Shown here piece by piece: positions 14,894 through 43,100 of a stretch of DNA of 64,000 nucleotides (position 1 is its first letter; each line of letters begins with the position of its first letter). Source of the stretch: Bacteroidota bacterium (lineage in GTDB: Bacteria > Bacteroidota > Ignavibacteria > UBA10030). The translations under genes were made by a program, and so were the position numbers. The stretch is taken from the NCBI GenBank assembly GCA_049522195.1, contig JBEKOB010000002.1:49392-113391 (forward strand), given 5' to 3'. Below the pieces are notes generated by a model. The model saw only the letters and a list, made by a program, of their open reading frames with translations. It was not told the origin of the DNA and made no database searches.

Positions 14894-14908
14894 TGCTTTC
14901 CGTAGAGC

Positions 14909-15055
14909 TTACTTCTCGTCGCTTACGGTGAGCCGGCGGCGCCCCTTCGACCTGCGACGGGACAGCACTTTTCTCCCGTTTTTCGAGGCCATGCGCGCTC
15001 TGAATCCATGCTTGTTTGTCCGTTTGCGCCGATGTGGCTGGTAGGTTCGTTTCAC
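14909..15055 (-). CDS. rpmH: 50S ribosomal protein L34
   Basis: This ORF is not in the supplied track (it is below the size cutoff). I translated it by hand from the minus strand as [49 protein letters not shown]: 48 aa with a GTG start and GGAG 8 nt upstream. Coordinates are +/- a few nt. Confidence 0.8.
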
Positions 15056-15550
15056 GTCGATACTCCGCGAGATTTCGTTGAACTATTACAAAGCTTTGTA
15101 ATGTAAGACTTTCTTGCCCGCAATACAAGCATTTCCGCTTTCGTAAGAGTGCGTTCGTACAAGAGACGTTTTTCTTAGCTGATTTACCGAGCACAATCAG
15201 ACGATTTAACGAATTGTAATTTTTGCCCTTGCTCTCGAGGTTCTCTGGTATTATACTCTGTGGAAGACTTTCTTCGCTCCGTCCCGTTGACAACATGTGG
15301 ACAACTTCGGGAAGTCCTCAAGGTGTTGTTTTTCACGACGAAACAGCTCTTCTCTGTTTTTCTACAGCCCTGTTGATAACCATGTTCTTAACAATGAAAT
15401 CACCCTTGGTTTGAATGGGTTGTGGGCTTTGCATAATGTTTACAAGTCAAAAAAAACGATAAAATCAAAAAACTCGGGTCTTCACCCTCGTTGATTGTTT
15501 TGTTTGTTGTTTGTTAATAACTCTCGCACTTTCCTGCAGATGTCGCCATC
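15056..15550. promoter_or_regulatory. Divergent rpmH / dnaA promoter region with DnaA-box-like motifs (candidate oriC segment 1)
   Basis: TGTGGACAA (one mismatch from the TTATCCACA complement) near 15296. TGTTGATAA (one mismatch from TGTGGATAA) near 15372. A/T run aaaaaaaacgataaaatcaaaaaa near 15440-15470. Confidence 0.5.
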
Positions 15551-17038: not shown

Positions 17039-17486
17039 CTCTCCATCGGTATCCCGCAAATAGACGTTCATGTCCCCCCGGGGGTGTGGTCTGCCTTCTT
17101 GGCCGCACAGCCTTTGTTTATATCTCAACATATAACGCGTGGATAGATGTTCATGAACTGTTTACTCTCTGGATTATTTTCAGAGTTTTAGTCTTACTTC
17201 CCGAGACGGTGGAAACCCAGTATAGACGTCAACATATTACCAACACTTTTGAGCAGCCCTTTTACAAATAATGTTCCTGTCTTCAATCCTCTTTTTCTAT
17301 TTATCACTTTCTTATTAACACTATCAACACCCTTATTATAAGTATTATCTTTTTCTTTCTTAATATTATATTTATATAAGGTAACAACTTACCAAAACTC
17401 CATTCTCGGGTTGTAAATGCCCTAATTTTTTGGTATTTTGCAGTATCAATGCCCAATTGCCCATCTCGCCAAAGAAGGAGATAGGA
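17039..17486. promoter_or_regulatory. dnaA-dnaN intergenic region with a strongly AT-rich tract (candidate oriC DNA-unwinding element, segment 2)
   Basis: A ~130-nt stretch near 17270-17400 is about 75% AT in a 55-58% GC genome. Degenerate DnaA-box-like 9-mers are present (cGTGGATAg, TTTATCACt, CTATCAACA). AAGGAG sits in front of the dnaN ATG. Confidence 0.5.
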
Positions 17487-18602
17487 ATGAAATTCACAGT
17501 CTCAAGCAATGAATTACAAAAGGCACTGGCGAAAGTCAGCGGTGTCGTTCCATCCAAGTCGACTCTCCCTATTCTTGAAAATATACTTTTCAAGCTTTCC
17601 AAAAACGTGCTTCAACTTGCAGCCACAGACCTTGAAGTATCGATGTCTGCTTCCCTGGACGTCAAAGGAAATGAAGATGGATCGATTGCAGTACCGGCTA
17701 AGAGATTGATGGAGACCATCCGGGCATTACCGGATATTCAGTTGGTATTCAATGCAGATATGTCATCCAACAAGGTCAAGATGATAACCGAGATGGGTGA
17801 ATATATTCTGATGGGAGAATCGAGTGAGGAATTTCCAACAATTCCGCAGGTGAAAGGGGACGACAGAATCACGCTGAGCGGTGAAATGTTGAAGAGCATG
17901 ATACATCGCACTCTGTTTGCGGTGAGCACGGACGAACTAAGACCCGCTATGACCGGAGTCCTTTTACAGGTAAAGGATGGGGATCTCCGTGCCGTGTCAA
18001 CAGACGGGCACCGGCTCGTGCGCATCCAATATACCGGACTGAAGCAGCCAAAGTTGAAATGGGATATCATCGTTCCGGCAAAAGCCCTCAATCTTGTGTC
18101 GCGGTCCGTTGACAGCGAGACGAACACAGTCTCCGTTGACGCTACCCATGTCCAGTTTACTTTCGGCACAACGACATTGACTTCGCGCGTCATAGAGGAA
18201 AGTTATCCGAACTACGAGTCTGTTATTCCCCTCGACAACGATAAGAAGCTCGTCGTAGCAAGAGATTTGCTCCTTGCAGCGGTTCGACGTGTGGCACTCT
18301 ATTCAAGTTCAACGACACACCAGGTCCGCTGCTCGGTTCGCAAAAACGAATTGCGTGTCATGGCTGAGGACATTGATTTCGGCGGGGAAGCAAAGGAAAA
18401 AGTACCCTGTGACTACAATGGAGAGGAGTTGGAAATCGGTTTCAACTCGACGTATCTGATTGATATCCTTTCACACCTCGACGGCGAAGAAGCAGAGTTC
18501 AAGCTGGGCACATCCGTTCGGGCGGCAATCATTACGCCGGCACATCAGAAACCGAACGAAGATCTACTCATGCTCGTCATGCCCATGCGACTGAATACAT
18601 AA
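17487..18602 (+). CDS. dnaN: DNA polymerase III beta sliding clamp
   Basis: The N-terminus MKFTVSSNELQKALAKVSGVVPSKSTLPILENILF is preceded by AAGGAG. The ORF-track start (17430) is 19 codons upstream. Three-domain beta-clamp length (372 aa). Confidence 0.95.
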   Translation: MKFTVSSNELQKALAKVSGVVPSKSTLPILENILFKLSKNVLQLAATDLEVSMSASLDVKGNEDGSIAVPAKRLMETIRALPDIQLVFNADMSSNKVKMITEMGEYILMGESSEEFPTIPQVKGDDRITLSGEMLKSMIHRTLFAVSTDELRPAMTGVLLQVKDGDLRAVSTDGHRLVRIQYTGLKQPKLKWDIIVPAKALNLVSRSVDSETNTVSVDATHVQFTFGTTTLTSRVIEESYPNYESVIPLDNDKKLVVARDLLLAAVRRVALYSSSTTHQVRCSVRKNELRVMAEDIDFGGEAKEKVPCDYNGEELEIGFNSTYLIDILSHLDGEEAEFKLGTSVRAAIITPAHQKPNEDLLMLVMPMRLNT

Positions 18603-18693
18603 CAGCATGCTGTTGGGCGAGAGAATTTGTGAAGGTAGCCCCATCTCGCGAGCCGGGAGCGGGGCTATCGCATTGTAAGCGCCATCAGGGAAT

Positions 18694-19816
18694 GTGAAGA
18701 TCCGCGAACTCCACGTACAGAAATTCCGCAACCACGCTCATACCGACGCTGTCTTCGGAGGGGGGATTAATGCGGTTCTTGGCGAGAACGGCGAGGGCAA
18801 GACCAATCTCCTGGAAGCGATCTCGTATCTCTGTCTGACGAAGAGTTTTTTCGGCAGCGCGGATGGCATTGTTCTTCAGGTTGGAGAGCCGAGGTTTGAA
18901 GTCAGCGGCGATCTGGAAACAGATTCGGGACTGCGGTATCATGTGTCGGTCTCGTATGATCATGAAGCCGGGCATAAAGACTTCCTGATCAACAGAGCGC
19001 CGGTCGAAAAGTTTTCGGAGGTGGTCGGGCAGTTTCCGGTGGTAGTCTTGTCTCCGGAGTCAGGGGCCATCACGAGTGGTGGACCGGCAGATCGGAGGCG
19101 ATTTCTCGACTTCGTGATAGCGCAGGCAAGCAAGATGTATCTCGAAGACCTCCTCGAATACAGGCGGGTCTTGAGGCAGCGAAACCGGGTGTTGTTTGAC
19201 AACAAGGTTGGCCGGGTAGAGTACCCGGATCTGATTGAGCCGTGGGATCAGGAACTGATTGAGCGGGGTGCCCGGATCATACACCGGCGAAACGCATTTC
19301 TCAGGGAATTGCAGCCCATCGTTCACGAGTCATATGCCAAGATTGCAGGAAGAGCAGAGGAGCCGACGCTGCAGTACCTTCCATCAGTACCGCATGCCGA
19401 GCGGGCATCCGAGGAAGAAGTACGGGAGATCTTTCGACAGGAGTTGAAGCGGAAGGCGCCAGAGGAAAAGCGGTTAGGGTTGACCCTGGTTGGGCCGCAC
19501 CGCGACGAACTTGAGCTTGCGATCAACAAACTGAGCGTTCGCTCGCATGCATCGCAAGGCCAGCACAAAACGTTTCTGATAGCCCTGAAGGTGGCGGAGT
19601 TTCTCTACCTCCAGAACAAGCGCAACGAGCGGCCGATACTTCTGCTGGACGATATCTTTACAGAGCTTGATCATCACAGATCGGAGAGGCTCCTGGCGAT
19701 GACCGAAGCGGTCGGCCAGGCGTTCATCACAACGACGAACGACAGCGTTTTTCCTCCAGATTTCAACTGGAGCGGAACAAACAAGCGATTCTTTGTGCGC
19801 AAAGGAACGGTCGAGC

Positions 19817-19845
<29 letters not shown>
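18694..19845 (+). CDS. recF: DNA replication and repair protein RecF
   Basis: 383 aa with a GTG start. Walker A GENGEGKTNLLEAISYL, the ABC-like signature, and the Walker B LLLDDIFTELD. Confidence 0.93.
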
Positions 19846-22200
<2,355 letters not shown>

Positions 22201-22247
22201 AGTAACACAGATCGTAGAAACTCTATCAGCTCTCAGCGGAAATACGA

Positions 22248-24863
22248 ATGGCGAATGTGAACGAGAAGATTATACCGGTTGACATTGAAGAAGAAATGAA
22301 GGGTTCCTACATCGATTATTCGATGTCGGTTATCGTTGCGCGGGCGCTGCCCGATGTGCGCGACGGCTTGAAGCCGGTTCACCGTCGCGTGCTGTACGGC
22401 ATGCAGGACCTGGGACTTGCGAGTAACCGGGCGTATAAGAAAAGCGCCCGTATCGTTGGTGAAGTACTCGGCAAGTACCACCCGCATGGCGACTCGGCGG
22501 TATATGACAGCATGGTCCGCATGGTGCAGGATTTCTCCCTGCGCTACCCCCTGGTCGACGGGCAGGGCAATTTTGGATCCGTTGACGGCGACTCTCCGGC
22601 GGCAATGAGGTACACGGAAGCCCGCCTCTCTCGCATTGCCGAGGAAATGCTCAAGGACCTTGAAAAAAACACAGTTGATTTCACCCCCAACTTTGATGAT
22701 ACACTCAAAGAGCCATCGGTTCTCCCGGCGAGCTTTCCGAACCTTCTCTGCAACGGGGCGAGCGGAATTGCCGTCGGCATGGCAACAAACATCCCACCGC
22801 ACAACCTCAGAGAGGTCATAGACGGCTGCATCGCCTATATCAAGAACGAAGAGATCACGAACGACCAATTGATGAAACACATCGTTGCCCCGGATTTTCC
22901 GACCGGCGGCATCATCTACGGCTATGAAGGAGTCAAAGAGGCGTATGCGAACGGTCGCGGCCGAATTCTTGTCCGGGCACGAGCAAGCATCGAGACTGGC
23001 AAGGGGGATCGCCAGCGCATTGTCGTATCAGAGCTTCCCTATATGGTCAACAAGGCCTCGCTGATCGAAAAAATTGCAGATCTCGTCAATGACAAGAAAC
23101 TCGAGGATATTGCCGACGTGCGCGATGAATCCGACCGTGATGGCATGCGCATGGTCATTGAGTTAAGGCGTGATGCGAACGCAGAAGTTGTGCTCAACAA
23201 TCTGTACATGCACACGCAGATGCAGACGACCTTCGGGATTATCATGCTGTCGCTCGTGGAGGGGCGCCCCCGCGTGCTGACGCTGAGAGAAATGATCCAG
23301 AAGTTTGTCGAACACCGAAACGTCGTGATTGTCCGCAGGTCAAAGTACGAGCTCGATGAAGCTGAAAAGCGGGCGCATATCCTCGAGGGTTACATCATTG
23401 CTCTCGATAACATCGATGCGGTGATTAAACTCATCAAGCAGTCGAGGGATGTCGAGTCTGCGAAGCTTGGGCTGATGAAGAAATTCAAACTGTCCGAGAT
23501 CCAGGCGAAAACGATTCTGGACATGCGATTGCAGAAGCTGACGGGTCTCGAGCGGAAAAAAGTTGAGGACGAGTACCGGGAGACAATCAAGCTGATTGAG
23601 AAACTCAAGGCGATCCTGAAGAGCAAGCCGCTGCAGATGAAGATTATCGAGGATGGGCTGCTGGAGCTGAAGGAAAAATATGGCGATGATCGCAGGACCG
23701 AAATCGTTTATAAAGCCGAGGAATTCAGCATAGAGGACATGATTGCCGAGGAAGAGGTGGTTATTACGATCAGCCACCTGGGACTTATCAAGCGGTTCCC
23801 CGTGTCGGGATACCGGCGGCAATCGCGCGGAGGAAAGGGGGTAACGGGAGCGGCGACAAAAGAGGACGATTTTGTCGAACATATGTTTGTTGCCAGCAGC
23901 CACAACTATATCCTGTTCTTCACAAATACCGGCCGTTGTTACTGGTTGAAGGTATTCGAGATTCCCGAAGGGGGGCGCACGGCGAAAGGGAAACCAATCA
24001 ATTCCCTCCTGGCGAAGGGCCCGGAAGAAACCATCAGTGCTTTTATCACGGTAAAGGAATTTGACGATCAGCACTATGTTTTCATGGTTACGGAGTCAGG
24101 GCTTGTGAAAAAGGTGCTCCTTTCCGAGTTCAGCAACCCGCGGAAAAACGGCATCACAGCGACGACACTGAAAAAGGGGGACATCCTTAAGGATGCCAGG
24201 CTGACCGATGGAAAGCAAGACATCATTATCGGGACACGTGACGGAATCGCAATTCGATTCCACGAAGAGGAAGTCAGGCCGATGGGTCGAAGTGCCGTGG
24301 GCGTTCGCGGCATTCGCTTGGCAAAGAAGGACAAAGTCGTCGGTGTTGTGAATCTGAGGAGAAAGGGAACGACCATCCTGGTTGCGACTGAGAGCGGGTA
24401 CGGAAAACGGAGCGAGGAAGAGGAATATCGTGTGAGCCACCGTGGTGGCAAGGGCATCATTACCGTCAAGACGTCGGACAAGACGGGTATCATGGTTGCG
24501 ATCAAAGAGGCGGTCGATACGGATGATGTCGTTGTGGTGACGACAAACGGCATGGTGATCCGCCAGCACGCGTCGGATATCCGGGTGGCAGGGCGCAATA
24601 CACAGGGGGTTCGGCTCATCAGGCTTCACGAGGGGGACGCCGTTGCCGATGTTGCGATCGTCATGGCAGAGGAAGAAGAAGAGAAGCAGCTCGCAGAGAA
24701 GGAAGCTCAGAAGAAGACCAACGGGATGAAGGATGGAAAGTCCAGCCCGGCGCCGGAAAAGGCTGTCAAGAAAGAAACGAAACCCGAGAAAGAAGTCAAA
24801 GCGGAAGCAAAGATAGAGTCGGGCACCCTAAAAGCGCAGAAGAAAAAGAAGAAATCGAAGTAA
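22248..24863 (+). CDS. gyrA: DNA gyrase subunit A, with a Lys/Glu-rich C-terminal extension
   Basis: 871 aa. The N-terminal motif is [14 protein letters not shown], the active-site Tyr is in [10 protein letters not shown], and the C-terminus has a beta-pinwheel. The last ~70 aa are a low-complexity [15 protein letters not shown]...KKKKKSK tail. Confidence 0.97.
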
Positions 24864-24992
24864 GCCTCAAGGTGGGAAAGCCACCACGCGGCGTGTCGCT
24901 GCGACCGAATAAGGCGCTGTGAAACGGCGACACAACAATTCCCGTTGTGTCATCAACTCACCAACCCCATCGTCATCATCAAGGAGAAAGCA

Positions 24993-25982
24993 ATGGAGTT
25001 CGTTGCGGGTTTCGTTGTCCTGGTGCTCATTGCTGCCCTGTTCGAGTATCGCTTCAGGAACTCGGACTACCTCATCGTCTACGAGGACAAAACCGGCCTG
25101 GCGACGCGAAAGGGACGCCTCTATCCCCGTCATTTTAGCCTTCCGATCCGGCGAACAACACATTCGTTGCAGCTGATAGTCGAGGCCACCGCAAAGGGTA
25201 ACCTTGAACTACGGGTCAAGCTTGGACTCACCGTCGCTGCAAGCCCGGACAATCTGGCCACGCTCATCCGGGTCGGGGGATGGAACGCGGATGCTGTCGT
25301 ACGGGCGGCGAAAGATCTTGAAGCTTTCTTTCTGGGAATCGTGAAGGCGTATACGGAGCAGTTTGGAATCGAGGATCTTTCCTCGGAGAAGATCCATGAA
25401 CACCTGAATCAAAAAGTGCCTGCCTGCAAAACATCGTTTGGTCTGGACGTGATCTCGCTGACGCTTCTTTCCTTTGAGCCGGTCAATCCCCAGATCTCAG
25501 AGGCCCTGAGGCAGCAGGAGCATGCCCGCATACTGGAACAGACAGAACAGCTGAACCAGAAAGCCCGCGTTGCGGCGGCGAAGGCAAAGCTGAAGGCAGA
25601 TGAAGAAATCGCCCTTCTGGAAAACGAACTTGAGCTGAAGAAATACAACCTGAAGAAGAGCCAACTCGAGCGCGAGTCGTCCCTCTCCGACATTCGCGTT
25701 GACGAAGAGCTGAAGCAAAACCGCAAAAAACTTGAATTTGACAAAGAGGAGCTTGATGTTCTTAGAAGCAGCCCGGAGCTCCTCATGCTCACACCGCAAG
25801 CAGCGCGCCTGGCTGAGGCTAGCCAGGGGTTGAAAAACGCCCGCACCATCGTATCGCTTTCTCCACAGGACCTCTCACAGGGATCTGAATTGCTGGGGAC
25901 ACTACAGAAGATTCTGCTGAGCGCCATCGAATCCTATCGTACAGAAGCGAAAAAGGCGAAAACGAAACGCCCCGTCGAATAA
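24993..25982 (+). CDS. SPFH/band-7 (flotillin-like) membrane protein with a C-terminal coiled coil
   Basis: Start at MEFVAGFVVLVLIAALFEY with AAGGAG upstream. One TM segment is followed by a band-7-like core (...GLDVISLTLLSFEPVNPQISEALRQQEHARILEQ...) and a heptad-rich K/E/L tail. Confidence 0.55.
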   Translation: MEFVAGFVVLVLIAALFEYRFRNSDYLIVYEDKTGLATRKGRLYPRHFSLPIRRTTHSLQLIVEATAKGNLELRVKLGLTVAASPDNLATLIRVGGWNADAVVRAAKDLEAFFLGIVKAYTEQFGIEDLSSEKIHEHLNQKVPACKTSFGLDVISLTLLSFEPVNPQISEALRQQEHARILEQTEQLNQKARVAAAKAKLKADEEIALLENELELKKYNLKKSQLERESSLSDIRVDEELKQNRKKLEFDKEELDVLRSSPELLMLTPQAARLAEASQGLKNARTIVSLSPQDLSQGSELLGTLQKILLSAIESYRTEAKKAKTKRPVE

Positions 25983-26029
25983 ATCACTAACCGGGGGCCT
26001 TCTCTTTGCCGAGGGGTCACGCGCACTCC

Positions 26030-29000
26030 ATGCAAACACACGCCAAGGATCCACTTTCCTTGTTCCGGCTTAAGACGCTCAAGGCGGCCAGGGTTTCTGA
26101 AATCAGTGAAACCACAGCCTCCTCTGCCGCGGCACTGGAAGAGCGCGTCAATTTTCATATCGGCAATCCCGTTCAGGATGTAAGACTCGCATCTGCATAT
26201 CTGCGGATTGTCCTTGGCGTCGACATCCGTCGCGAGGATCTCTGTGACAGCGAAACCGACAATATTCTGAAGCATCTCGATTGGGATGCCCAGGACGAGC
26301 CGAAGCTGACGTTCCTCCGCAACCTGATCCACAAAAGCGCCCCCTACACGCCGCGTGGTGGATTCGCGCGCAACAATCCAAACAGTCTCGTTAAAGCGTT
26401 TGCCGACTGGCTTCAGAGCCAGCCGGAGCCCCTGTCGTATGATCTGGGTCAGACCTCAGGAAGGCGGGAGATTATCCTTGCGACTGGCGGAGTTGAGGAG
26501 TCTCTTCGGGTCCTCTTCCATGCCCTTTCGTCGTTTCTCGTGCAGCAGCCGGCACAGATTTTCCTGCATGGACCCGACGTCGCCATCGATAAAGAAGCAT
26601 ATAAGGGATTGAGGTTTGAGAAACTTCCGGATGACGAATCCCTTGCCCTGCGACAGCTCGGTGAGCACTTGGTCCGGTCTCCACAGGTTCCCACTATTCT
26701 CATCATGGGTTCAATTCTTGGCGAGGAGGCTCGACGATCGCTCCGCGAGACAAGTCTTGATTGCCCACTCTTTTTCGTCGAAGCCAACGATGCTCCGAAT
26801 CATCTGTCCCTTGCCCGCGAAGCAAAACTTACACAGCGTGTTATGCGTGTTCTTACTCCCGCCATCTTCAACAACAGGCTGCGTGATTTGGCCACAGTGT
26901 TTCTGACCGGCAATGCGGACATCCTTGGCATTTTCGAATCGACGCATTTTCAGCTGAAGGGAACCCCCTCGGCTTCCGAAATTGAGCTTCTCACGTATCT
27001 TCTGGAGAACGGAAGTCAGCCCAAGCCGATGGAAAGTCGCAGCAAGGAGATTGTGGTTGAGCCCTCCTATCAATCTCTTTTCCATGGAGTCCGACAGAGG
27101 AATGCGTTTCCCGTCTATGCGCGGCTATTGGATGAGCGTCTGGGTAACTATGTTGCGAGAGTCTCGGAGAACCTTGAAGGGCGAATCGAGCGGATTACCG
27201 GAAAGCTCCGCAGCATTGCTGAAAGGGTGGAGGAGTTTCGTTCACTTGCCCCGTTTGACGTGTTCGCCCAAACGGACACGAGAAGCTTTCTCGATGAGCT
27301 GCCGCGGCAGATTGATTCGCCAGAGTGGCAAGGCGAGCTGGAGCAAAGCCTTCTCCAAGCCTTCTTGAAACACCATCCAGAGTACGAGCTATCGCGAAGT
27401 GTTGTAGTAAGTGGGTCGTCGAGAAGCGCACTTGGCCTCCTTGGATTCCATTGTGGCATACGCGAAGTCGTGGTGTCGGACCTTAGCTGGAGTTATGAGC
27501 ACTGTTTCCCAACGGTCCATCCTGTCCCATTGACGCCAATGTTTGCTCTCGATGTGGACGCTATGATTGAGGCTGTACGGGATCGACTCGCATCGGATGA
27601 GGGGTGGCGGGAGTTTGGTGCTGTGGTGCTCAACAATCCGCACAACGCGACAGGACGTGTATTTGACGAAAGTGGACTAAAGAAACTCATAGCATGGCTT
27701 CTCGATCATGGCGTCTGGGTTATCGACGATCTTTCTTATCAGGAAGTAGCCCCCTCCGCCGTCCTGCCCCACATAAAGACGGTTCGCCAGCTTGCAGATG
27801 AAATCGTTGCCGGGGGACGGTTAACAAAGGAACAAACGGCCAGAGTTATTACTGTCCATTCAGTCTCAAAGACGGACTCGCTGGCAGGTGCCCGCCTGGC
27901 GATCGTGGAAATACGACACGAGAAGCTCTACCGCCAGTTTGTTCAGTCACACAAACACATCCGGCCGAATCTCGGCGCCATTGCACTGACATATTTGTTT
28001 TACCGCAACGAGCCGGAAATCGCCCAGGCCTATTGGCGTCTTCGAAATCAGATTCTTCGTGAACGGACAGATGCGCTCCTTGAAGCAGTCGCGAGCCTTC
28101 CGCGGGATCGCAATCCATTCGAAATCGACATTATTCCCCCAACAGGAAGCCTCTACCCGCTGCTGGTTGTTCATCGGTTGCCATCCGGGCTTTCGCTCGA
28201 TTGGCTGGCTTCGGGGCTGGCACGGCAGGGGATAGGGATGCTGCCACTTTCCACGTTTGCGCGCACGGAGGACGGATTTGACACGGGGCGCAAAACATTC
28301 CGACTTACGCTTGGCGGCTCGGACGGTGCGGAAACTCTCCTCAAGAAAACGCGCCGCGTACTCATAGATCTTAACCGGCTCATCGCGGAAGAATCGTCCC
28401 GATATAACCGCCTCTATTCCCCACTCCGGTCAAGGCGAGAAACTACAACAGAGGCCCAGGAGTTAGTACACACGGATCGTTGGAAACGCATTGAAGAGGG
28501 GGTTATCGCCGCATGTCGGAACGCCAGCCTAAGACACTACCGTCAATTCCGGTTCGGCAATTTGGAGCGGCGATTCTGTGATGAATATGTAGTGGATCGA
28601 CTTGCCGTTTTCAAGCAACGCAGCCTGGATAGGTATCGTCAGTGCGCTCAGCTCATCCAAGAGCCGCGAGCGGACGCTGGAAAATCGCTAACAGCGCGAC
28701 TCGAGCGGGAGCTCTATAAAGACTCACTCCCGCGTCGTGACATCACGTTCCGTCTGCGCACGAGCGATCGAACAGTCCATCCAACACAGATGTACTCGAT
28801 CCAAACGGAACGATGCTTCGAAAACATTATTGATAGACTTGTCCATGACGAATCCGTCACAGTGTCGAGCGTGGAGCGTGCCGCACAGTGTCTACTCGAG
28901 GAGTATCTTGGTCTAAACGTCGCAATCACGTCAAGCGAAGAGTCCGATGAACTTTTGCTCGACCTCGGATCGATGATCGCGGCAGAGAACTCGGCCCTCC

Positions 29001-31642
29001 TGCGGGCTGGCGATACGCGCGCCCACATGATGTCATTCTGGGGGGACTGGGATGGAAGCAATCGGCCGTCCGGTCAGGGTCACAGGCTGGTCGCTTCGAC
29101 GCTGATTGAGAATGTCAGTCACCTGGCGAAACTGCTCTCCGTTCTGCTGAACGCCGACAAGAGTATTCGAATTGCCCCGGAGCTCGCTGCTGAAGTTCAG
29201 ACATTATCAGAGAGCAATCGGCGGTTCACAAAACTGCTGAACAATATCACAGACCTGACGCACCAGCTTGAAAAGCGCTATCGCGGAATTTTGCCGTTCA
29301 GTGTAAAACCCGGAGCAGTACGAAATATCGGGATGAAGTTGCGCCTCGCGCGAGATCCACTCACGCTTCTCTGGCAGCACAATGACAGGCTGGAGCGGAA
29401 GATGGTGGATTTGCGTATCCAACGGAGAGAAACACTTGAGTACTATTTTGCGCTCAATAAGCGGCTAAGAAAACAACTCTTTGCCCTGATCCCAGTGATT
29501 CAGCAGAATATCAGCAACGAGCCGCTTTTGAGAGAGGCGTCCCTCTTCCGCGATTTACTGCAACGGATGGTGATCACCCCGCGCATCGATCAGGCGATGA
29601 TCACCACACAGGATTCGTTTGCGATCGATACCACCGTTTACAACATCTACGAAATCAACGAACTTGCTGCGAAATACGGGAACCCGGGGATCATCCTTGC
29701 CCTGCAGGTCAGCATGTCGACACAGGCGGAGGCACTGATCACGCTGGACCGCAAGTTGCGCTCACGCCGTGAGCAGGTGCTTCGAAACAATCCACAGCTC
29801 GAGCTGCCAATCATCCAGCTTATCCCGCTCTTTGAGGACCTCGATGCGGTCCGCTCGATCCCCTTGTATCTTACAAAAATCTGGGACTACGCTCTTCAAA
29901 GTCGCCGTGTTAATCAGGAGACAGCCGATCGGTTTGCGGAAATCGTCTCAGAGGTCTTCATTGCCGGTTCGGATTTGAGCCAGCAAGTTGGCCAAGCGGC
30001 GGGAGCGGCCCTGTATCGGCAGGCAAAACACGAAACGATGCTGTGGCTGGCGGAGCACCAAGTCATCGATCGGGTAAGGATGAAGATGGGAAGCGGTGAA
30101 CCAATGCAGCGGCAGGGAGGGTACTATGCGAGCATGTCCGGCGAACCCGCGTTTATGAAGACGCTCCCCGCGCAACAGCTCATTGCTTCACATCTTCATG
30201 CAGCAGCACGAAAAAGCACGCAATATGCAACAACGCCGCTCATGGGGATTTTTACGAGCGGCGACCTCCGGACACTTCAAAGCACCATCTCAGAGCAACT
30301 ACGCTATCTCCCCGTTCAGGAAATGGCGAACATTTTGTATCACCTGTGGGAGTCACAGCGAAGACATCGGAGCGACCTGATTCGCGCAGCAGAATCCCTC
30401 GTGGAAAGCCGCCTCCAGCAGAAGAAACGGGGTGAGCAAGAGCTCGAGCGACTGACGGTCGGAACAAAGGATTCTGTCTACGATCAGTTTACCACGTTGC
30501 TGACAGAAGATTTCCGGCAGATTCTTTATGGCAGGGAAGAAGATGTGGTTGGTATTCATATCATCTCTTATTTCATTGCCCGAACGATGCCTCAGTTGCG
30601 GGACCGGCCCACAATCCGCCCGACTGCCGGAGCCGGGAGCGAGCGTGGCCAGCGAATTCTCGAACAGATTGCCAAGATCATACCGCTCTCCAGACATGGA
30701 AGTCGCCTGCGCGCAATTGCTCACAACCAGGCGCAAACAGCTGTGCTGGGCTTCAACCAGCTCACAACAGGACTGTTTCGTGCCCTTGACCGATTTAGGC
30801 AACTTGAATTCAAAGAAGGGGATTCGCGATCGCTGATTGCGGATCGAGTGCTGCCTCATCTTCCGGTATACGAGATGCTTCACACACTCAGGATCTACCA
30901 TGATCCGGAGCTGACATTCCTGAAGCGGATTGAGCCGTCCTTCCCAGCCGGGACATCGGCATTTCTCGCGGTCAGAGAGGACAACGATAGCCTTCCACAC
31001 TATGTCCGACTTCTGCAACAGGAGTTGTTGCGCCGTCATGGACTCGATGTCAACGACTTCTTCGAGAACGGAACATTTACCAGAGAACTTCTTCCCTCGC
31101 TTCGGCCCGACCTGGCGGTGTTGCTCCAGGGAGATCTCTTTAACACAGATGTTGAAAAGTTGCTTGGCAACGCCCGTGGATCGATGGACGAGCGATGGCG
31201 AAAGGAAGTGAACCGCCTTCTTGCTGTGCCGGTGGAGATACGCTCATGGCGGAAAAGCATCTGGGAGTTGCTGGAGAATCCGATCACTCAACGCGTCCAA
31301 GGTTTTGTTGAGCTGGCGGTCGCATTGAATACGCTTTCGCGCAATCAGCCTTTGAAAAACGAATCCAGTCCGCTGCGAGCTATGAAGATGTCTTCCGAAC
31401 TTTCGCACTTCTTTACAGCCGCCAACTCGACAGATGACATGCGCCAATTCCTAGGCGCGGCACTGAGCTATCTTGGGGCAATTTCAGAAGGGATGGTTGA
31501 GGTTCCGGTTGCGATCGTGCGGTCGTTGAAGGAGGTGGAGAAAATCGCAAAGATTGAGGAGCAGGCGTTGTCTCCGGAAAAACAACAACTCCTTCGGTTC
31601 TATATGCTCCAGATAGCCAGACTTGCGGGAGAGAACGGATAA
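26030..31642 (+). CDS. Giant (~1870 aa) orphan multidomain protein: class-I/II PLP aminotransferase-like region fused to a divergent phosphoenolpyruvate-carboxylase-like C-terminal region
   Basis: Uninterrupted 5.6-kb ORF. The track start at 26006 is a TTG; the ATG at 26030 with GAGGGG upstream is preferred. Aminotransferase motifs: LNNPHNATG, IDDLSY about 28 aa later, SVSKTDSLAGARLA with a Lys, and a C-terminal FRLTLG Arg. PEPC-like collinear motifs: TVHPTQ, IPLFEDLDAV...IWDY, IAGSDLSQQVGQAAGAALYRQAK, MGSGEPMQRQGG, terminal Gly. Confidence 0.6.
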   Translation: MQTHAKDPLSLFRLKTLKAARVSEISETTASSAAALEERVNFHIGNPVQDVRLASAYLRIVLGVDIRREDLCDSETDNILKHLDWDAQDEPKLTFLRNLIHKSAPYTPRGGFARNNPNSLVKAFADWLQSQPEPLSYDLGQTSGRREIILATGGVEESLRVLFHALSSFLVQQPAQIFLHGPDVAIDKEAYKGLRFEKLPDDESLALRQLGEHLVRSPQVPTILIMGSILGEEARRSLRETSLDCPLFFVEANDAPNHLSLAREAKLTQRVMRVLTPAIFNNRLRDLATVFLTGNADILGIFESTHFQLKGTPSASEIELLTYLLENGSQPKPMESRSKEIVVEPSYQSLFHGVRQRNAFPVYARLLDERLGNYVARVSENLEGRIERITGKLRSIAERVEEFRSLAPFDVFAQTDTRSFLDELPRQIDSPEWQGELEQSLLQAFLKHHPEYELSRSVVVSGSSRSALGLLGFHCGIREVVVSDLSWSYEHCFPTVHPVPLTPMFALDVDAMIEAVRDRLASDEGWREFGAVVLNNPHNATGRVFDESGLKKLIAWLLDHGVWVIDDLSYQEVAPSAVLPHIKTVRQLADEIVAGGRLTKEQTARVITVHSVSKTDSLAGARLAIVEIRHEKLYRQFVQSHKHIRPNLGAIALTYLFYRNEPEIAQAYWRLRNQILRERTDALLEAVASLPRDRNPFEIDIIPPTGSLYPLLVVHRLPSGLSLDWLASGLARQGIGMLPLSTFARTEDGFDTGRKTFRLTLGGSDGAETLLKKTRRVLIDLNRLIAEESSRYNRLYSPLRSRRETTTEAQELVHTDRWKRIEEGVIAACRNASLRHYRQFRFGNLERRFCDEYVVDRLAVFKQRSLDRYRQCAQLIQEPRADAGKSLTARLERELYKDSLPRRDITFRLRTSDRTVHPTQMYSIQTERCFENIIDRLVHDESVTVSSVERAAQCLLEEYLGLNVAITSSEESDELLLDLGSMIAAENSALLRAGDTRAHMMSFWGDWDGSNRPSGQGHRLVASTLIENVSHLAKLLSVLLNADKSIRIAPELAAEVQTLSESNRRFTKLLNNITDLTHQLEKRYRGILPFSVKPGAVRNIGMKLRLARDPLTLLWQHNDRLERKMVDLRIQRRETLEYYFALNKRLRKQLFALIPVIQQNISNEPLLREASLFRDLLQRMVITPRIDQAMITTQDSFAIDTTVYNIYEINELAAKYGNPGIILALQVSMSTQAEALITLDRKLRSRREQVLRNNPQLELPIIQLIPLFEDLDAVRSIPLYLTKIWDYALQSRRVNQETADRFAEIVSEVFIAGSDLSQQVGQAAGAALYRQAKHETMLWLAEHQVIDRVRMKMGSGEPMQRQGGYYASMSGEPAFMKTLPAQQLIASHLHAAARKSTQYATTPLMGIFTSGDLRTLQSTISEQLRYLPVQEMANILYHLWESQRRHRSDLIRAAESLVESRLQQKKRGEQELERLTVGTKDSVYDQFTTLLTEDFRQILYGREEDVVGIHIISYFIARTMPQLRDRPTIRPTAGAGSERGQRILEQIAKIIPLSRHGSRLRAIAHNQAQTAVLGFNQLTTGLFRALDRFRQLEFKEGDSRSLIADRVLPHLPVYEMLHTLRIYHDPELTFLKRIEPSFPAGTSAFLAVREDNDSLPHYVRLLQQELLRRHGLDVNDFFENGTFTRELLPSLRPDLAVLLQGDLFNTDVEKLLGNARGSMDERWRKEVNRLLAVPVEIRSWRKSIWELLENPITQRVQGFVELAVALNTLSRNQPLKNESSPLRAMKMSSELSHFFTAANSTDDMRQFLGAALSYLGAISEGMVEVPVAIVRSLKEVEKIAKIEEQALSPEKQQLLRFYMLQIARLAGENG

Positions 31643-31739: not shown

Positions 31740-34163
31740 TTAGACTCCGTAGGGAACCCAGATATTCTTGACCTGAGTCGATTTAAGAAGAAGCTTTTCG
31801 CTCTTCATTCGGTACCAGTCAATCTGTCCGCCGTCGGGGACCCATGTCTGTTTCATATTACTGATGGAGGCCTCTTCAATCGCCCTTCCGCCTTCGGAAC
31901 CACCGAAGAACCAGACCGCATCGACATCTTCATGCTCAGCAAGGACTTTGGCAACGGCATCCGGGTTCTGTGCTGTGAGCATATTGATAACTCCGGAAGG
32001 GACATCGGAGTGTTGAATAATCTGGACCAGATCCATCGCTGTCATAGCATGCTTACCCGAGACTGCAACAACGGTGTTTGCCATGGCAATGGCCGGAGCG
32101 AGGATGGAGATAAGACCGAGCAACGGCGAATTGTCGGAAGCCCGCATTCCAATTACGCCAACCGGTTCGCGCAGCCCGACAACCAGCCTTCTGCCGAGCA
32201 CTGGTTGGACGGTTCCGCCAAATTTATCGGCGTACGCCCCGAATTCAAAAAGCTGACTAATCGCCTGGTCAACTTCGGCGAGCGCCTTTTCCGGGGCACA
32301 ACCCGTCTGGGCTGCGAGGCCGGCAGCGAAGCGTTCCTTCTCGGTTGCAAGATTCTCGGCCCAGAAGTAAAGGATTTGAGCCCGCAGATGAGCCGCGGAC
32401 TCAAACCAAGATGGGAATGCGGCGCGCGCAGCTTCAACAGCATTACGCACATCTTTTCTGTTCGCCTCGCCAACGACCGCAAGCAATTCACCAGAAGGCG
32501 ATGTAACCGAAAAACTCCCGGCCTGATCCGGGCGGGTAAGCTTGCCGCCGATCAGGAAACGGAAAGTGCGGTCAATGGTGGTACCGTTGCTGGTTAATTG
32601 GTGAGTGGTTGAGTGGAGAGAAGTTAATTGGTGATTGGTTAACTGGGAGGCGCTGGGTTCGGTTGGTTTCTCTTGACCGTGGTCCGTGTCTACCAGCACA
32701 TCGTACATTCCCTCGCGCCCGCCTTCGCGACCGTAGCCGCTCTCTTTATATCCTCCAAAGCCCGCAGCAGCATCGAAAAGGTTTGTTGAATTGATCCAGA
32801 TTGTTCCGGCTCTGAGCTTACGCGCAACATCCATCGCTGTGTCAATATCCTGTGACCAGATTGAAGCTGCGAGGCCATAACGAGTATTGTTGCCGAGCTG
32901 AACAGCTTCAGCCGGCGTCCGGAAGGTCAGAGTTACCAGGACTGGGCCGAATATTTCTTCCTGTGCAATCGTGTGAGAGGGTTCAACGTTGGTGAAAAGT
33001 GTCGGTGGAAGGAAAAAGCCCCCCTTCGGACAGACGACATTTTCCGGCTGCCACATCACAGCCCCTTCTTTTTTGCCAACATCCATCATCTCTGTTATTT
33101 TTTTGAGCTGTTCAGCGTTGTTGATCGCCCCCATATCGACGGCCTTGTCGAGAGGATTGCCAACCCGCAACTTGCTCATACGGCGCTTGAGACGCTTTAT
33201 GAAGTCGTCGCGAACCCCTTCCTGCACGAGAAGACGCGATCCGGCACAGCAAACCTGTCCTTCATTAAACCAGATTCCATTGACAACTCCCTCGATGGCA
33301 GAGTCCAGATCGGCGTTCTCAAACACGATAAACGGTGACTTTCCCCCCAACTCCATGGTGAGGTGCTTGTGGGATCCTGCCGTTCCCTTCCGGATGATGC
33401 GACCGACCTCTGTTGAACCCGTGAACGTCACCTTCCAGGGTGTTGGATGTTCGTAGAGCATGGTCCCGGTTTTCGAATCCCCGGTGAGGATGTTAACGAC
33501 ACCCGGAGGAAGCTTCACCTCATTCATCAGGATGTCAGCCAGCAGGAGGGCCGTCATCGGCGTCGATTTGGATGGCTTGAGGACTACCGTATTTCCAGCA
33601 GCGATTGCAGGAGCAATTTTCCAGGCAAGCATGAGGAACGGGAAATTCCAGGGAATGATTTGCGCGATCACTCCGCCGGGGCGATAGCCGGAAAATTCAT
33701 GCTCCATCGTCTGGGCCCAGCCGGCATGATAGTAGAAATGCCTGATGACGACGGGAACATCAATGTCCCTTGTTTCGCGTATTGGCTTGCCGTTGTCTAA
33801 TGATTCAAGAACCGCGAAGATGCGCGCGTGTTTTGCCACAGCGCGGGCGATCGCATACAGATAGCGGGCACGCTTGTGGCCGGAGAGAGCGCTCCACGCG
33901 GGAAACGCTGCCTTCGCCGCGTCGATAGCGGCATCAACATCTTCCTTTGTCCCCATCGCGATTTCGGCGAGCACCTCATCACTCTTTGCCGGATTGATCG
34001 TCTTGAAGTAACCGCCGTTCTTTGGCGGCTGCCACACACCGTTGATGGAATGGGAAAACTTGGAGCCGTGGGACTTGATCCATTCCCGCGTCTTGGCTTC
34101 GGATTCCGGTGCCGGACCGTAGTCAAGTTTGTCAATGAGCGAAGAGAGTTTATTGTTGTCCAT
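31740..34163 (-). CDS. Two-domain aldehyde dehydrogenase family protein (complete ALDH domain plus a C-terminal partial ALDH-like NAD-binding-type domain)
   Basis: 807 aa. Domain 1 has IPWNFPFLM, the catalytic Glu in ELGGKSP and the catalytic Cys in EGQVCCAGSRL. A low-complexity linker QLTNHQLTSLHSTTHQLTS follows. Domain 2 keeps ALDH-like Rossmann features (GVIGMRASDNSPL..., ANTVVAVSGKHA...) but has no EGQ-C catalytic half. Confidence 0.85.
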   Translation of the reverse strand: MDNNKLSSLIDKLDYGPAPESEAKTREWIKSHGSKFSHSINGVWQPPKNGGYFKTINPAKSDEVLAEIAMGTKEDVDAAIDAAKAAFPAWSALSGHKRARYLYAIARAVAKHARIFAVLESLDNGKPIRETRDIDVPVVIRHFYYHAGWAQTMEHEFSGYRPGGVIAQIIPWNFPFLMLAWKIAPAIAAGNTVVLKPSKSTPMTALLLADILMNEVKLPPGVVNILTGDSKTGTMLYEHPTPWKVTFTGSTEVGRIIRKGTAGSHKHLTMELGGKSPFIVFENADLDSAIEGVVNGIWFNEGQVCCAGSRLLVQEGVRDDFIKRLKRRMSKLRVGNPLDKAVDMGAINNAEQLKKITEMMDVGKKEGAVMWQPENVVCPKGGFFLPPTLFTNVEPSHTIAQEEIFGPVLVTLTFRTPAEAVQLGNNTRYGLAASIWSQDIDTAMDVARKLRAGTIWINSTNLFDAAAGFGGYKESGYGREGGREGMYDVLVDTDHGQEKPTEPSASQLTNHQLTSLHSTTHQLTSNGTTIDRTFRFLIGGKLTRPDQAGSFSVTSPSGELLAVVGEANRKDVRNAVEAARAAFPSWFESAAHLRAQILYFWAENLATEKERFAAGLAAQTGCAPEKALAEVDQAISQLFEFGAYADKFGGTVQPVLGRRLVVGLREPVGVIGMRASDNSPLLGLISILAPAIAMANTVVAVSGKHAMTAMDLVQIIQHSDVPSGVINMLTAQNPDAVAKVLAEHEDVDAVWFFGGSEGGRAIEEASISNMKQTWVPDGGQIDWYRMKSEKLLLKSTQVKNIWVPYGV

Positions 34164-40169: not shown

Positions 40170-43100
40170 ATGAGTCGCTCATCAGCGTATTGTATCGTTC
40201 TTCTTCTCCTCGCGCCTCTTGGCGCAGTCTCTCAAGCTCAATCGAAGATACCGACGAAGACCCCGGAACCAGGGCTGCTTTTCTATCTTTCCGGCGATCA
40301 CGGTTTCAATGCCGATTATTCCGCTGGGGGGACTCCCGCACCCAATTTTCTCCAAAACGTGAAAATCATTCCTGATGGAGCAAAAGGGCCCGGGTTCGCA
40401 TGCGAGGACAAACAGCTTATGTCATACTGGGCGCCTGGAAACATTTATGCGGAGAGAGGAACCCTCAGCTTCTTCTGGCGATCACGCGAGCCGGTCGGGA
40501 AGACCGAGTTCCCCATCTTTCGTGTTGGATATGCCGATCACTCCAGCTGGGATATGGTGTGGCTGCGCATCGATTACAATGGTCATGGCTTTGACGCGTT
40601 TGTGACGGATGTGAATTTGTCGCGGGTTCGAATATCATATTCACTCTCGCCGTTTCCGCGCCCAGAACAATGGATTCACCTTGCCTTGACGTGGGATGAA
40701 ACCGTTGGAATTCGCTTCTTCGTTGATGGGAAACAGATTGCCCAGAAAGACAGCGTGGTGGTGCTCTACGCGGGTCTCGACCAATTTGGGCCCCATTCAC
40801 GGATCATAAGCCCGGTCCAGGTGCAGAGTGCCTACAACTTCCAGCGGGGCGGCGACATCGATGAGGTTCGCATCTATGACCGCATGCTTTCGCCGGAGAA
40901 CATCGCCCGACTTGCCAAAGGCGGGACGGCCGGGGAGGTTCCCGTCCTGATAAGGAACCTTCAGGACGCCCGATGGAAATCGGAATGGCGATTGAGGTAT
41001 GGATGGAATCTGGATCTTCCTCCGTATCTGGATCAACCGTTTACGAGAGTGCGCAAGGTTGAAATTCAGAACGCGTACGATCTGAAACGCTGGTGGTGGA
41101 AGGGAATAGACGGAATCCGCGAGACGACATGGCCGGGCGTCTACAATCGATCGCGCCTCCCCGGGCGAAACGATTATTTTCAACTGCCCGACTGGGACTG
41201 CTATTCGCTGTCGGGAAAATCGATCACCTTCTTCATGCCCGACGAGACGTGGAACCACCTTGAAATCTCAGGCGGGGCATGGGGAACAATGACGCTGGCC
41301 GCATCGAATGAAAGCAAACAAGAACCTGACACTAGAGAGCTTTTCGCCCGACCAAAAGGGCAGGAAAAAACCGTCCATCGATTGTTGAAACCAGAGTTTG
41401 GGGGGCGACTGCAATTCAAGAATGAAGTGCAGGAGACACCTATTGGAGAGTTGTCCGCTTACAATGTTGAAGCCGGAAGCGAACCTCATGGTCTTTGCAC
41501 ACTTCGTTATTGCTTGAACGGCGGGTTAGAATCGACGAGCAATGAAGTGCAGCCCTTGATGAAATTCGTGAATGGCAGATTTCTGCCGGATGAACGGTCG
41601 GCAATGATTGCCTTGCCCGGAGCCTGGTTGCGGGAGGAACAGAGACGGGCCCCGGAGAAACATTTGCCGCTCGTACACATTTTCGTTCCCTACGATTCCC
41701 GCTCTGCAATGCCAGCGGATGTAAGCCCCGACTCCTCCTATGCGTGGGAAAAAATCAACGGTGGACTTGATGGCGTTGCCATAGATCTGCCGGCGTTGGA
41801 TCTAAAACCGATCGATGGTAATCTTATCCCTTTCAATATCCAGATAAAGGATCCTCTTTGGCCAAGTCGCACCATGCTCGATTTCTCTTTTTCTGTGAAG
41901 CCCGGCGAGGCGCGCACGTTGTGGCTTGACACGCGGGATCGAATCTTGCCAAAAGGCAAAAGTCTCTATCTGACAATTGCTTCAGCCTCTCCGGATTTTG
42001 GTCCAAACACACTCGAAGGGGCTCAAATCCGGCTTGTCTTTAAAGCGTGGAAAGAAGCATATCGTGAGCATGTTCAGGATCGGTTCAGTCAAGTTCGGGA
42101 TAACTACGCTTTTCTCGTCGAGGAGCGGCCGGATGATCCACGGTTCAATCTTTACAACCGGTTCGAGAGTGATGTCAACGATCTGCTGACTGTAGACCCG
42201 AAACACTATCCCGGTCAGAACTATTGGTACGATATCGACCATAATCATCGAAAACCACTCTTTGTGCAGCCCTCCGTGCCGGATGGAATTCCCGCCTGGG
42301 CCTTCCGCCAGATCGAAGACCTCCGGTATTTCAATCGATTTGTTCTCTGGTGGATCGATAACCGCCAGATCCAAGACGGAGAACTCGGCGGTGGGCTTTC
42401 AGATGATGACGATCTCACGAATTGCTGGCCCGGCGCCGCGCTGATGGGATGCGAACCGGAAAAGATCAGCAACGCCGTGCTCCGAATGCTGGATGCCATC
42501 TACGAAAACGGAATGTTCACAGGCGGGCTCTCAACAATCCAGACAGACGGACTGCATGCACACGAAGAGGGGATCGAAGCGCAAACGCAGGCAATGCTGG
42601 TGGACTATGGAAGCCCGAAACAGGTAGAGCGAATGATGGAAACCGTCCGCGCCCTGGACGAGAAATTGATATTGAAGAACAAAGCCGGTCACAGGCATTT
42701 TCGGTCGAGCTATTTCAGCGGCACAAAAATCGCAGACGAAGGAATCTGGGAATGGTCGCTCCAGCAACAGGAGTATTTGCTCATGGAGCCGGTTCTGACT
42801 CTGGCTGAATTCAACGGCAATCCGCGGGCGCGCCAGCTGGCGATCGATGTTGCAGACGGATTGCTGGCACATGCCAGGAAAGACAGCAAGGGGAAAATTG
42901 TTCTTGATTCAGAGATCAACTTCTCGAGCGACTCAACCAGACCGTCTCCGCTCGGAACAAAAGGAATGCTTGCTTCTAGCATGGGAGATGGTGCAACCAT
43001 CAGCACGTCGTCGGCAGCGCTTCAGCTTCTCTGGGGAGTCTATCGGATGACAGGTGAGAACATGTATCTTCAACCCCTGCTTGATCTTGGCGATGGCGTT

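Follow-up and report, generated by a model that had tools for sequence, protein, structure and literature searches.

Introduction

Four types of phosphoenolpyruvate carboxylase (PEPC), belonging to two structural classes, are distinguished in a review of the enzyme, and none of them is fused to an aminotransferase (PMC8100219). The residues on which catalysis depends are known from several members: in the maize enzyme His177 (His138 in E. coli Ppc) is the catalytic base, Arg647 (Arg587) lies in loop I and contacts the C-terminal glycine, and the C-terminal peptide is itself catalytic (PMC3894211); in Flaveria Lys600 (Lys546) is one of four bicarbonate-site residues, and Arg450 and Arg767 (Arg396 and Arg713) are essential (PMC6363079). 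The Mg2+ ion is bound by one glutamate and one aspartate, while CO2 is held in a hydrophobic pocket (PMC10176493). Here we report on a giant gene in a 64,000-nucleotide (nt) stretch of DNA from a Bacteroidota bacterium (Ignavibacteria; UBA10030; assembly GCA_049522195.1, contig JBEKOB010000002.1, positions 49,392-113,391 of the forward strand), which we call the window. The C-terminal 1,050 or so residues of its product almost certainly make up a genuine, if highly divergent, member of the PEPC-fold superfamily. In all relatives examined this PEPC-like module is preceded by a degenerate aminotransferase-like domain (N1) and a class-I aminotransferase (N2), in that order.

The mechanical open reading frame (ORF) on the forward strand, 26006-31642, has 1,878 codons and starts at a TTG, from which the residues of the giant protein are numbered throughout; the ATG at 26030 is the likelier true start, because the N-termini of homologues favour it over the TTG. 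Databases name members of the family merely "PLP-dependent aminotransferase" (PLP, pyridoxal 5'-phosphate). The sole Pfam match of the full-length protein is Aminotran_1_2 at amino acid residues (aa) 444-772, with no match to PEPcase even at E <= 10; NCBIfam and a phmmer search of the Protein Data Bank (PDB) return aminotransferases only, and NCBIfam offers no assignment beyond aminotransferase for the family.

Results

The C-terminal module is predicted to adopt a PEPC fold

We modelled the C-terminal 1,058 residues in AlphaFold2 from an alignment of 22 sequences; the model has a predicted local distance difference test (pLDDT) score of 77.7 and a predicted template modelling (pTM) score of 0.77. 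Searching the PDB with this model in Foldseek gave 51 matches at E <= 1e-3, and all 50 among the matches listed are PEPCs, with a probability of 1.00. The best were Arabidopsis PPC1 (8ojq, E 4e-9), E. coli Ppc (1jqn, 9e-9) and the archaeal-type enzyme (3odm, 1.7e-6), with maize PEPC (6v3o) also found, and the alignments extend over about 1,000 columns at 11-13% identity. The strands of the model coincide with the equivalents of PEPC motifs described below (TVH, FWGD, VITPRI, ALQVS, LIPLFE, VFIAG and RMKMGS). Two segments of low confidence, 543-553 and 709-753 in the numbering of the modelled fragment, correspond to the Gly-rich loop I and to loop II (GSRPxKRRP) of PEPC. The low pLDDT of the first fits a mobile loop, and the values below 50 in the second are expected of a flexible one; both loop equivalents are strongly conserved despite their low pLDDT. 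On the strength of this model, the predicted PEPC fold, a beta-barrel ringed by helices, is solid.

Pairwise and single-profile searches gave a different picture. A blastp comparison of the module with E. coli Ppc returned nothing below E 0.4, an hmmsearch of PDB sequences with a 22-sequence family profile returned nothing at all, and hhalign against E. coli Ppc alone was not significant. The last of these paired NRRFTKLLNNITDLTHQLE with the N-terminal FSQFLNLANTAEQYH motif of Ppc, out of order; as this breaks collinearity, we discounted the match as spurious. Among 1.84 billion representative proteins, a profile search recovered family members only, with no canonical PEPC and no bridging sequence. 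When the 171-residue core of the module (aa 1215-1385) was isolated, it matched one of 24,736 Pfam models, PF00311 PEPcase, over profile positions 481-621 of 919 (E 0.0073; 14.7 bits, under the cut-off of 22.4). The cores of 31 diverse relatives matched the archaeal-type family PF14010 in 16 cases at E <= 1 (best E 3.7e-4) and PF00311 in 15 (best E 1.3e-3), and any other family in at most two. The PF00311 gathering score was reached neither by the full-length protein, nor by the isolated core, nor by the 31 relatives; scores against PF14010 also stayed under its threshold, and the module, at about 1,050 aa, differs from the compact 55-60 kDa subunit of that type (PMC8100219).

Comparison of profile with profile brings the relationship out. 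We aligned a profile of the 31 family members with one of 15 canonical PEPCs (E. coli, maize, Arabidopsis and 12 diverse bacterial and haloarchaeal sequences from plasmid and chromid records) in hhalign, and obtained E 0.0014 for the whole module, in the register ISMA/PLFE/GYSDS/FHGRGGxxGRGG. The core alone scored 43.7 (E 5.8e-5) against the same PEPC profile; 120 column-shuffled controls scored 16.9 ± 3.2 (33.1 at most), which puts the real core at z = 8.3; none of them (0/120) equalled it. With permissive settings the path runs collinearly from fragment positions 29-896 to Ppc 51-823 and includes every expected motif pair.

Active-site residues are partly retained and partly replaced

The three motifs singled out by the original prediction, at nt 29820-30130, all lie in frame in one ORF, at nt 29825-30127. 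PLFEDLDAVRSIPLYLTKIWDYAL begins at aa 1274 (nt 29825), FIAGSDLSQQVGQ at aa 1318 (nt 29957), and KMGSGEPMQRQGGYY occupies aa 1360-1374 (nt 30083-30127), or aa 1359-1374 (nt 30080-30127) if the preceding Met is counted. Their start-to-start spacings are 44-46 and 40-41 aa; the corresponding intervals in E. coli Ppc, where PLFE, GYSDS and FHGRGG stand at 503, 540 and 578, are 37 and 38 aa. The claim that they occupy the positions of PEPC active-site strands was borne out by the profile-profile alignment, which sets PLFE on the strand of E506, GSD on the strand of D543, and G.G..QRQGG on the FHGRGGxxGRGG loop; the segments do not fall outside the active-site strands, and PEPC similarity is present. 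This similarity reaches far beyond the flagged 300 nt, over about 1,000 aa, and includes collinear equivalents of TAHPT, SWMGGDRD, ISMA, TEQGE, GSRPxKRRP, LRAIPW and the C-terminal glycine.

Column counts in this alignment, over the 15 canonical PEPCs and the 31 family members, show that twelve PEPC-invariant positions and the terminal glycine are retained in 31/31 relatives; the residue pairs are listed in Table 1. They include the histidine at the H138 position (also in 15/15 PEPCs), the L504 and E506 columns, which are invariant in the family and in PEPCs alike, the metal-ligand Glu of PLFE and Asp of GYSD, and R1534, R1538 and R1569. The terminal glycine is likewise present in 15/15 PEPCs, which end in ...(Q/R)N(T/S)G; an Asn precedes it in 28/31 relatives, and the register to N881/T882 is uncertain. 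Since hhalign left the tail unaligned, this last equivalence rests on position and on the shared glycine. About 25 extra residues separate RDRPTIRP from LRAI. At the aspartate allosteric site, K773 pairs with Ala or Pro and R832 is unaligned in the hhalign columns.

The other side of the map is a set of replacements: M538->F1318, Y541->G1321, K546->Q1326, D547->Q1327, F578->K1360, H579->L/M1361, R581->S/C1363, G583->E1365, G586->Q1368, G588->Q1370 and W717->H1573. Most of these are themselves fixed in the family, with Q1326, K1360 and E1365 each in 31/31 members and position 1363 either Ser or Cys. The mobile loop reads K(L/M)GSGEPMQRQGG and keeps, of the features of FHGRGGxxGRGG, R587 (as R1369) and two glycines alone. 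The original prediction had listed Lys to Gln, Arg to Ser and His to Lys as the catalytic substitutions; the first two correspond to Lys546->Gln1326 and Arg581->Ser1363, while the third is off by one position, as the invariant Lys1360 occupies the position of Phe578 in the profile alignment and His579 pairs with Met1361 (Leu in 25/31 relatives).

Conservation within the module peaks on these same motifs. Measured per 12-residue window, it averages 0.55 over the module, whereas the equivalents of active-site motifs account for seven of the 16 most conserved windows, including the top five, with values of 0.81-0.96 (Table 1) and the highest in the module on the window of the FWGDWDGSNRP motif. 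Relatives at just 33-40% identity retain every motif, together with the PLP-lysine motif of the aminotransferase.

The N-terminal half holds an intact aminotransferase domain and a degenerate aminotransferase-like one

N2 is a bona fide class-I/II aminotransferase. Its match to PF00155 scores 69.1 bits (E 5.1e-19; cut-off 19.7), and it carries the predicted PLP-binding lysine, the Asp/Tyr, the Asn and the two Arg motifs in sequences that are invariant in the family (NNPHNATG, DDLSY, SVSK with K622, GARL and FRLTLGG). An AlphaFold2 model of the N-terminal 822 residues (pLDDT 86, pTM 0.83) gave ACC synthase (1b8g, E 2.8e-15), 2dou and the T. thermophilus aspartate aminotransferase (AspAT; 1bjw) as matches in Foldseek. 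N1, the first 340 or so residues, has no Pfam match and lacks a PLP-lysine motif; its model shows an alpha/beta pattern with a seven-stranded sheet at aa 148-293, an invariant PYxPRGG motif lies at nt 26342-26362, and hhalign aligns N1 to N2 weakly (E 0.015) and in the expected register. N1 is probably a built-in degenerate second subunit, in which case the N-terminal half would form a tandem, intramolecular pseudo-dimer with a single active site.

The fusion is paired with an SPFH-like gene in several phyla

The profile search of representative proteins gave 257 matches in all, of which about 40 are full length (1,700-1,950 aa); in all of these the PEPC-like module comes last in the chain. 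The gene was found in 345 of 185,579 genomes (one genome per species), with carriers including Ignavibacteria (Melioribacter, Rosettibacter and Stygiobacter), Anaerolineae/Chloroflexota and Acidobacteriota, as well as a single bin labelled Desulfobacterales; the protein closest to that of the window, at 82% identity, comes from a "Bacteroidetes" metagenome-assembled genome (MAG). Matches of 1,040-1,160 aa on long contigs were considered as free-standing PEPC-like proteins and rejected as such: the N-terminal domains lie directly upstream in 80/80 loci, so that the short entries are fragments or frameshifted gene calls, and the fusion holds in all 80 loci fetched. In several long-read MAGs the giant gene was called as about 1,040-1,370 aa with a fragmentary N-terminal match, likely through frameshifted assemblies or gene calls.

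A gene for an SPFH/Band-7-like protein stands directly upstream of the giant gene in 78/78 informative loci (the other two of the 80 have no upstream sequence). Its product has an N-terminal hydrophobic stretch, FVAGFVVLVLIAALF, followed by a divergent SPFH/Band-7-like domain and a coiled-coil-like region. The window protein is 54% identical to the product of the gene abutting an Ignavibacteriales orthologue; across phyla the partners are 50-87% identical, and the C-terminal segment SPELLMLTPQAARLAEASQ..KNART is almost invariant. PF01145 Band_7 was matched by 11 of 26 partner orthologues at E <= 1 (best E 3.4e-7), the window partner scoring 13.3 bits, under the cut-off of 23.6.

In the window, the SPFH-giant operon comes directly after an origin-type neighbourhood at 8968-24863, with mnmG, mnmE and yidC on the reverse strand and then dnaA, dnaN, recF, gyrB and gyrA on the forward strand, and one Ignavibacteriales genome has the pair just past dnaA. 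We discarded a linkage to dnaA/gyrA, which is present in the window and in that genome and local to close relatives, gyrA occurring in just 3/80 loci. A defence system was also dismissed, PADLOC giving no matches. Convergent to the giant gene, at 31740-34163 on the reverse strand, lies a gene for an 807-aa aldehyde dehydrogenase (PF00171 at aa 44-488) with some 320 C-terminal residues that match no family; this adjacency recurs in 3/80 loci, in the closest relatives only. Farther along, a 1,572-aa protein (40170-44888, forward) has a Laminin_G_3/concanavalin-like domain near its N-terminus and, at its C-terminus, two glyoxalase/dioxygenase-superfamily domains; no family matches the stretch of about 1,000 residues in between. 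A 924-aa protein (54985-57759, forward) has a PDZ domain (aa 132-202) and a C-terminal SpoIIE/PP2C phosphatase, with no family match over the middle 500 or so residues. Genes for BatD-like and VWA+TPR proteins (58538-62103, reverse) resemble a Bat (Bacteroides aerotolerance)-type operon, which fits a Bacteroidota/Ignavibacteria host.

Table 1. Features of the giant gene and its partner in the window, with equivalents in E. coli Ppc and conservation of 12-residue windows.
Feature	Position (nt)	Strand	Equivalent or content	Basis	Conservation
SPFH/Band-7-like partner	24990-25982	+	330 aa; directly upstream of giant gene	translation	
Giant gene	26030-31642	+	about 1,870 aa from ATG	ORF list and translation	
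N1	26030-27040	+	degenerate fold-type-I domain	AlphaFold2 sheet; weak hhalign to N2	
N2	27335-28321	+	intact class-I/II aminotransferase, aa 444-772	PF00155, Foldseek, motifs	
SVSKT	27860-27874	+	predicted PLP-binding lysine K622	Ser and Lys invariant in 28 aligned full-length relatives	
PEPC-like module	28550-31639	+	about aa 849-1878, to C-terminus	AlphaFold2/Foldseek and hhalign	
RTVHPTQ	28769-28789	+	LTAHPTE; H925 = catalytic-base H138	hhalign; model strand 101-103	0.92
FWGDWDGSNRP	29036-29068	+	SWMGGDRDGNP; W1015 = W248, R1020 = R253	hhalign	0.96 (window DWDGSNRPSGQG)
VITPRI	29570-29587	+	third barrel strand in model (368-375); R1193	AlphaFold2 model	0.88
PLFED	29825-29839	+	PLFET; aa 1274-1278; L1275 = L504, E1277 = metal ligand E506	hhalign	
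FIAGSDLSQQ	29957-29986	+	MIGYSDSAKD; aa 1318-1327; D1323 = metal ligand D543	hhalign	0.91
KMGSGEPMQRQGGYY	30083-30127	+	mobile loop FHGRGGSIGRGGAP; R1369 = R587	hhalign; low pLDDT	0.94 (window GSGEPMQRQGGY)
DLRTLQS	30263-30283	+	LRVTEQG; T1423 = T611, Q1425 = Q613	hhalign, sub-window and full path	
RDRPTIRP	30599-30622	+	start of loop II GSRPAKRRP; R1534 = R699, R1538 = R703	hhalign	0.81 (as RDRPTxRP)
LRAIAHNQ	30707-30730	+	LRAIPWIF; R1569 = R713, H1573 at W717	hhalign	0.87
...LAGENG	31622-31639	+	C-terminus, then stop codon; G1878 = C-terminal Gly	position and shared terminal Gly	

Discussion

Our study describes a third lineage of the PEPC fold, with a new domain architecture and a new gene partner. 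The module stands apart from the bacterial/plant type (PF00311) and from the archaeal type (PF14010), and we do not count it as a member of either family because its scores, the residue at Lys546 and its Gly-rich loop all depart from theirs; we keep it within the PEPC-fold superfamily because it has in common with PEPC its predicted fold, both metal ligands, the base and the majority of the Arg residues. A literature search in a limited collection of papers found no report of a PEPC-aminotransferase fusion, of a PEPC-like domain of such a kind, or of PEPC in Ignavibacteria, and the words carboxylase, carboxykinase and anaplerotic are absent from the genome paper of I. album.

From this analysis, we propose that the module is an active enzyme using phosphoenolpyruvate (PEP), which feeds a 2-oxo acid to the fused aminotransferase, and we give this mechanism as a whole a probability of about 0.4. 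Our leading guess for the reaction is the conversion of PEP and bicarbonate to oxaloacetate and then to aspartate. The module would bind Mg2+ or Mn2+ through E1277 and D1323, and the phosphate of PEP would be held by R1369, R1534, R1538 and R1569 together with either R1193 or R1155; H925 would act as the base, and the enolate would be shielded in a pocket formed by W1015, L1275 and F1318. The loops after barrel strands 6 and 7 would have been rewritten (K546->Q, D547->Q, F578->K, H579->L/M, R581->S and G583->E), with Lys1360 perhaps taking over the role of the lost Lys/Arg, or with a changed site for the second substrate. The 2-oxo acid made from PEP would then pass to N2, with PLP on K622, to yield an amino acid, and N1 would complete the aminotransferase as an internal second subunit. 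In the simplest version, oxaloacetate would be channelled to aspartate within one polypeptide, and so the unstable intermediate would be protected. For the putatively membrane-anchored partner, our guess is that it tethers the enzyme to the membrane or scaffolds it.

Several results weigh against this proposal. No sequence method reached a curated family threshold. The TM-scores of the model are only 0.3-0.4 over the whole module, or about 0.5 when normalised to 3odm, so the residue equivalences are drawn from a weak profile alignment and not from superposition. The equivalent of Arg396 (DIRQES) is ambiguous, being R1155 according to hhalign (28/31 relatives) or R1193 on the third strand of the model (31/31), and the position of K546 holds Gln in 31/31 relatives against Lys in 15/15 PEPCs. 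The loss of R581 and H579, together with the invariant Glu gained in the Gly-rich loop, leaves about two positive charges fewer near the bicarbonate/phosphate subsite, which is awkward for the binding of PEP and bicarbonate; either the invariant Lys1360 on the adjacent strand would compensate for this, or the second substrate would be something other than bicarbonate. The aminotransferase has its nearest relatives among DapC-like, ACC-synthase and mixed class-I enzymes, and not specifically among AspATs. Finally, apart from the SPFH partner, no neighbour is conserved in more than 12 of the 80 loci, and the surroundings give no hint of a pathway.

The charge loss and the lack of a clear aspartate type in the aminotransferase would also fit a module that kept PEP and the metal-bound enolate and used an electrophile or phosphoryl acceptor other than bicarbonate. 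Its product would then be a 2-oxo acid distinct from oxaloacetate, and transamination would give some amino acid that is not aspartate. It is in the two loops tied to the handling of bicarbonate and phosphate that the substitutions are concentrated, and they are fixed in the family (K546->Q, D547->Q, R581->S, G583->E, G586->Q and G588->Q), while the metal site, the base, the pocket and the other Arg residues are untouched, and fewer positive charges would suit a neutral or cationic second substrate. Yet the hydrophobic pocket thought to hold CO2 is retained (Trp, Leu and Met->Phe), Lys1360 could stand in for the lost Lys/Arg, no accessory biosynthetic genes are conserved nearby, and the data point to no nameable candidate substrate; we consider such a change of chemistry somewhat unlikely. 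A fuller version, to which we give a little less weight and which is thus unlikely, makes the protein not a carboxylase at all but a 210-kDa machine on or in a membrane SPFH assembly, in which a new PEP-dependent chemistry would be coupled to amination in the same polypeptide, and which would have been shared horizontally among Ignavibacteria, Anaerolineae and Acidobacteriota.

A domain that has lost its catalysis usually drifts at its active-site positions. In this module both the kept and the substituted active-site residues are invariant and conservation peaks on the motifs, so the evidence leans towards an active enzyme, and from this pattern we think that the module is catalytically active. 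The original prediction of a PEPC-superfamily domain with substituted catalytic residues thus stands; as between the pseudo-enzyme and the altered chemistry that it offered, neither is proven. A module that had become inactive might serve the aminotransferase as a scaffold for regulation, ligand sensing or oligomerisation, and it might dock onto the SPFH partner. K546, H579 and R581, all with assigned roles in PEPC, are indeed replaced along with glycines of the mobile loop, no sequence model scores at a curated threshold, and PEPCs are tetramers with allosteric sites (PMC8100219), which makes the fold reusable for assembly or sensing. Against this, all 31 relatives, some with no more than about 35% identity, share both metal ligands, the histidine base, five or six Arg residues, the pocket and the terminal Gly without variation; nearly every replacement residue is fixed as well, and the aspartate allosteric site has K773 changed to Ala/Pro and R832 unaligned. 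We rank a pseudo-enzyme lower, as quite unlikely, because such a pattern is expected under selection for a functional active site. A chance resemblance to PEPC of three short motifs within a large helical protein, without common ancestry, is refuted and extremely improbable: although the full-length Pfam, NCBIfam, PDB phmmer and hmmsearch, blastp and single-Ppc hhalign searches were not significant, PEPCs are the sole significant fold matches, both PEPC Pfam families recur in about half of the 31 relatives, the shuffled controls never equal the real core (z = 8.3), and at least nine motifs, including the C-terminal Gly, are collinear at similar spacing.

A third deep lineage of PEPC would add to the known classes, and it is invisible to Pfam and NCBIfam. 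In hundreds of genomes, which come from common bacteria of sediments, hot springs and wastewater (the cultured Melioribacter, Rosettibacter and Stygiobacter among them), this protein goes by the name of aminotransferase only. If the active, PEP-using module that we favour carboxylates PEP, metabolic reconstructions of the carrier phyla miss an anaplerotic, CO2-fixing step, and the protein would be a natural PEPC-aminotransferase fusion, comparable to the sequential PEPC and aspartate-aminotransferase steps of some C4 plants. If it does not, a PEPC barrel would have been retuned through two rewritten loops, with the core of metal, base and enolate kept. The strict pairing with the partner gene provides a testable case of an SPFH scaffold for a metabolic enzyme and not a protease, and if the new chemistry at a membrane SPFH assembly were true, it would represent a previously unknown, membrane-organised metabolon that forms amino acids.

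Comparison with known systems

The closest described protein is Ppc (PF00311; 1JQN, 1FIY, 5VYJ and 8OJ9), which the module resembles in its predicted fold, its size class (about 900-1,050 aa) and the order of the barrel motifs. The two have in common the catalytic His, the Glu and Asp ligands, the Trp/Leu pocket, the equivalents of R587, R699, R703 and R713, and the Thr and Gln of TEQGE; in both, the chain ends on an invariant Gly and two flexible loops lie over the barrel. They differ in that the module has no significant direct sequence similarity to Ppc, has GSGEPMQRQGG in place of the GRGGxxGRGG loop, carries about 140 extra residues past LRAI and about 25 within loop II, and does not keep K773. 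Unlike Ppc it never stands alone: some 820 aa with the aminotransferase-like domains always precede it, and its link to the SPFH gene is constant.

The archaeal-type PepcA (PF14010; 3ODM) is likewise a divergent PEPC lineage that bacterial and plant models miss, and the cores of the family match PF14010 slightly more often and better than PF00311, all below threshold. PepcA is a compact protein of 55-60 kDa (PMC8100219), whereas the module, at about 115 kDa, has extensions like those of the bacterial/plant enzymes and the fusion to an aminotransferase; PepcA is a demonstrated carboxylase, and the module is known here from its sequence and predicted fold. N2 shares its fold and catalytic motifs with class-I aminotransferases (1BJW, TTHA0342 2DOU and 1B8G), which are normally homodimers of about 400 aa, while N2 has a degenerate copy before it and the PEPC-like module after it.

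Among SPFH proteins, operon pairs are found in stomatin-NfeD, HflK/C-FtsH and the flotillins. The partner has the same layout, with a putative N-terminal membrane helix, an SPFH-like domain and a coiled-coil, and the same strict link to one gene. Its similarity to SPFH domains is weak, and its association is known from gene linkage; here, the linked gene encodes a soluble, 210-kDa putative metabolic enzyme and not a protease.

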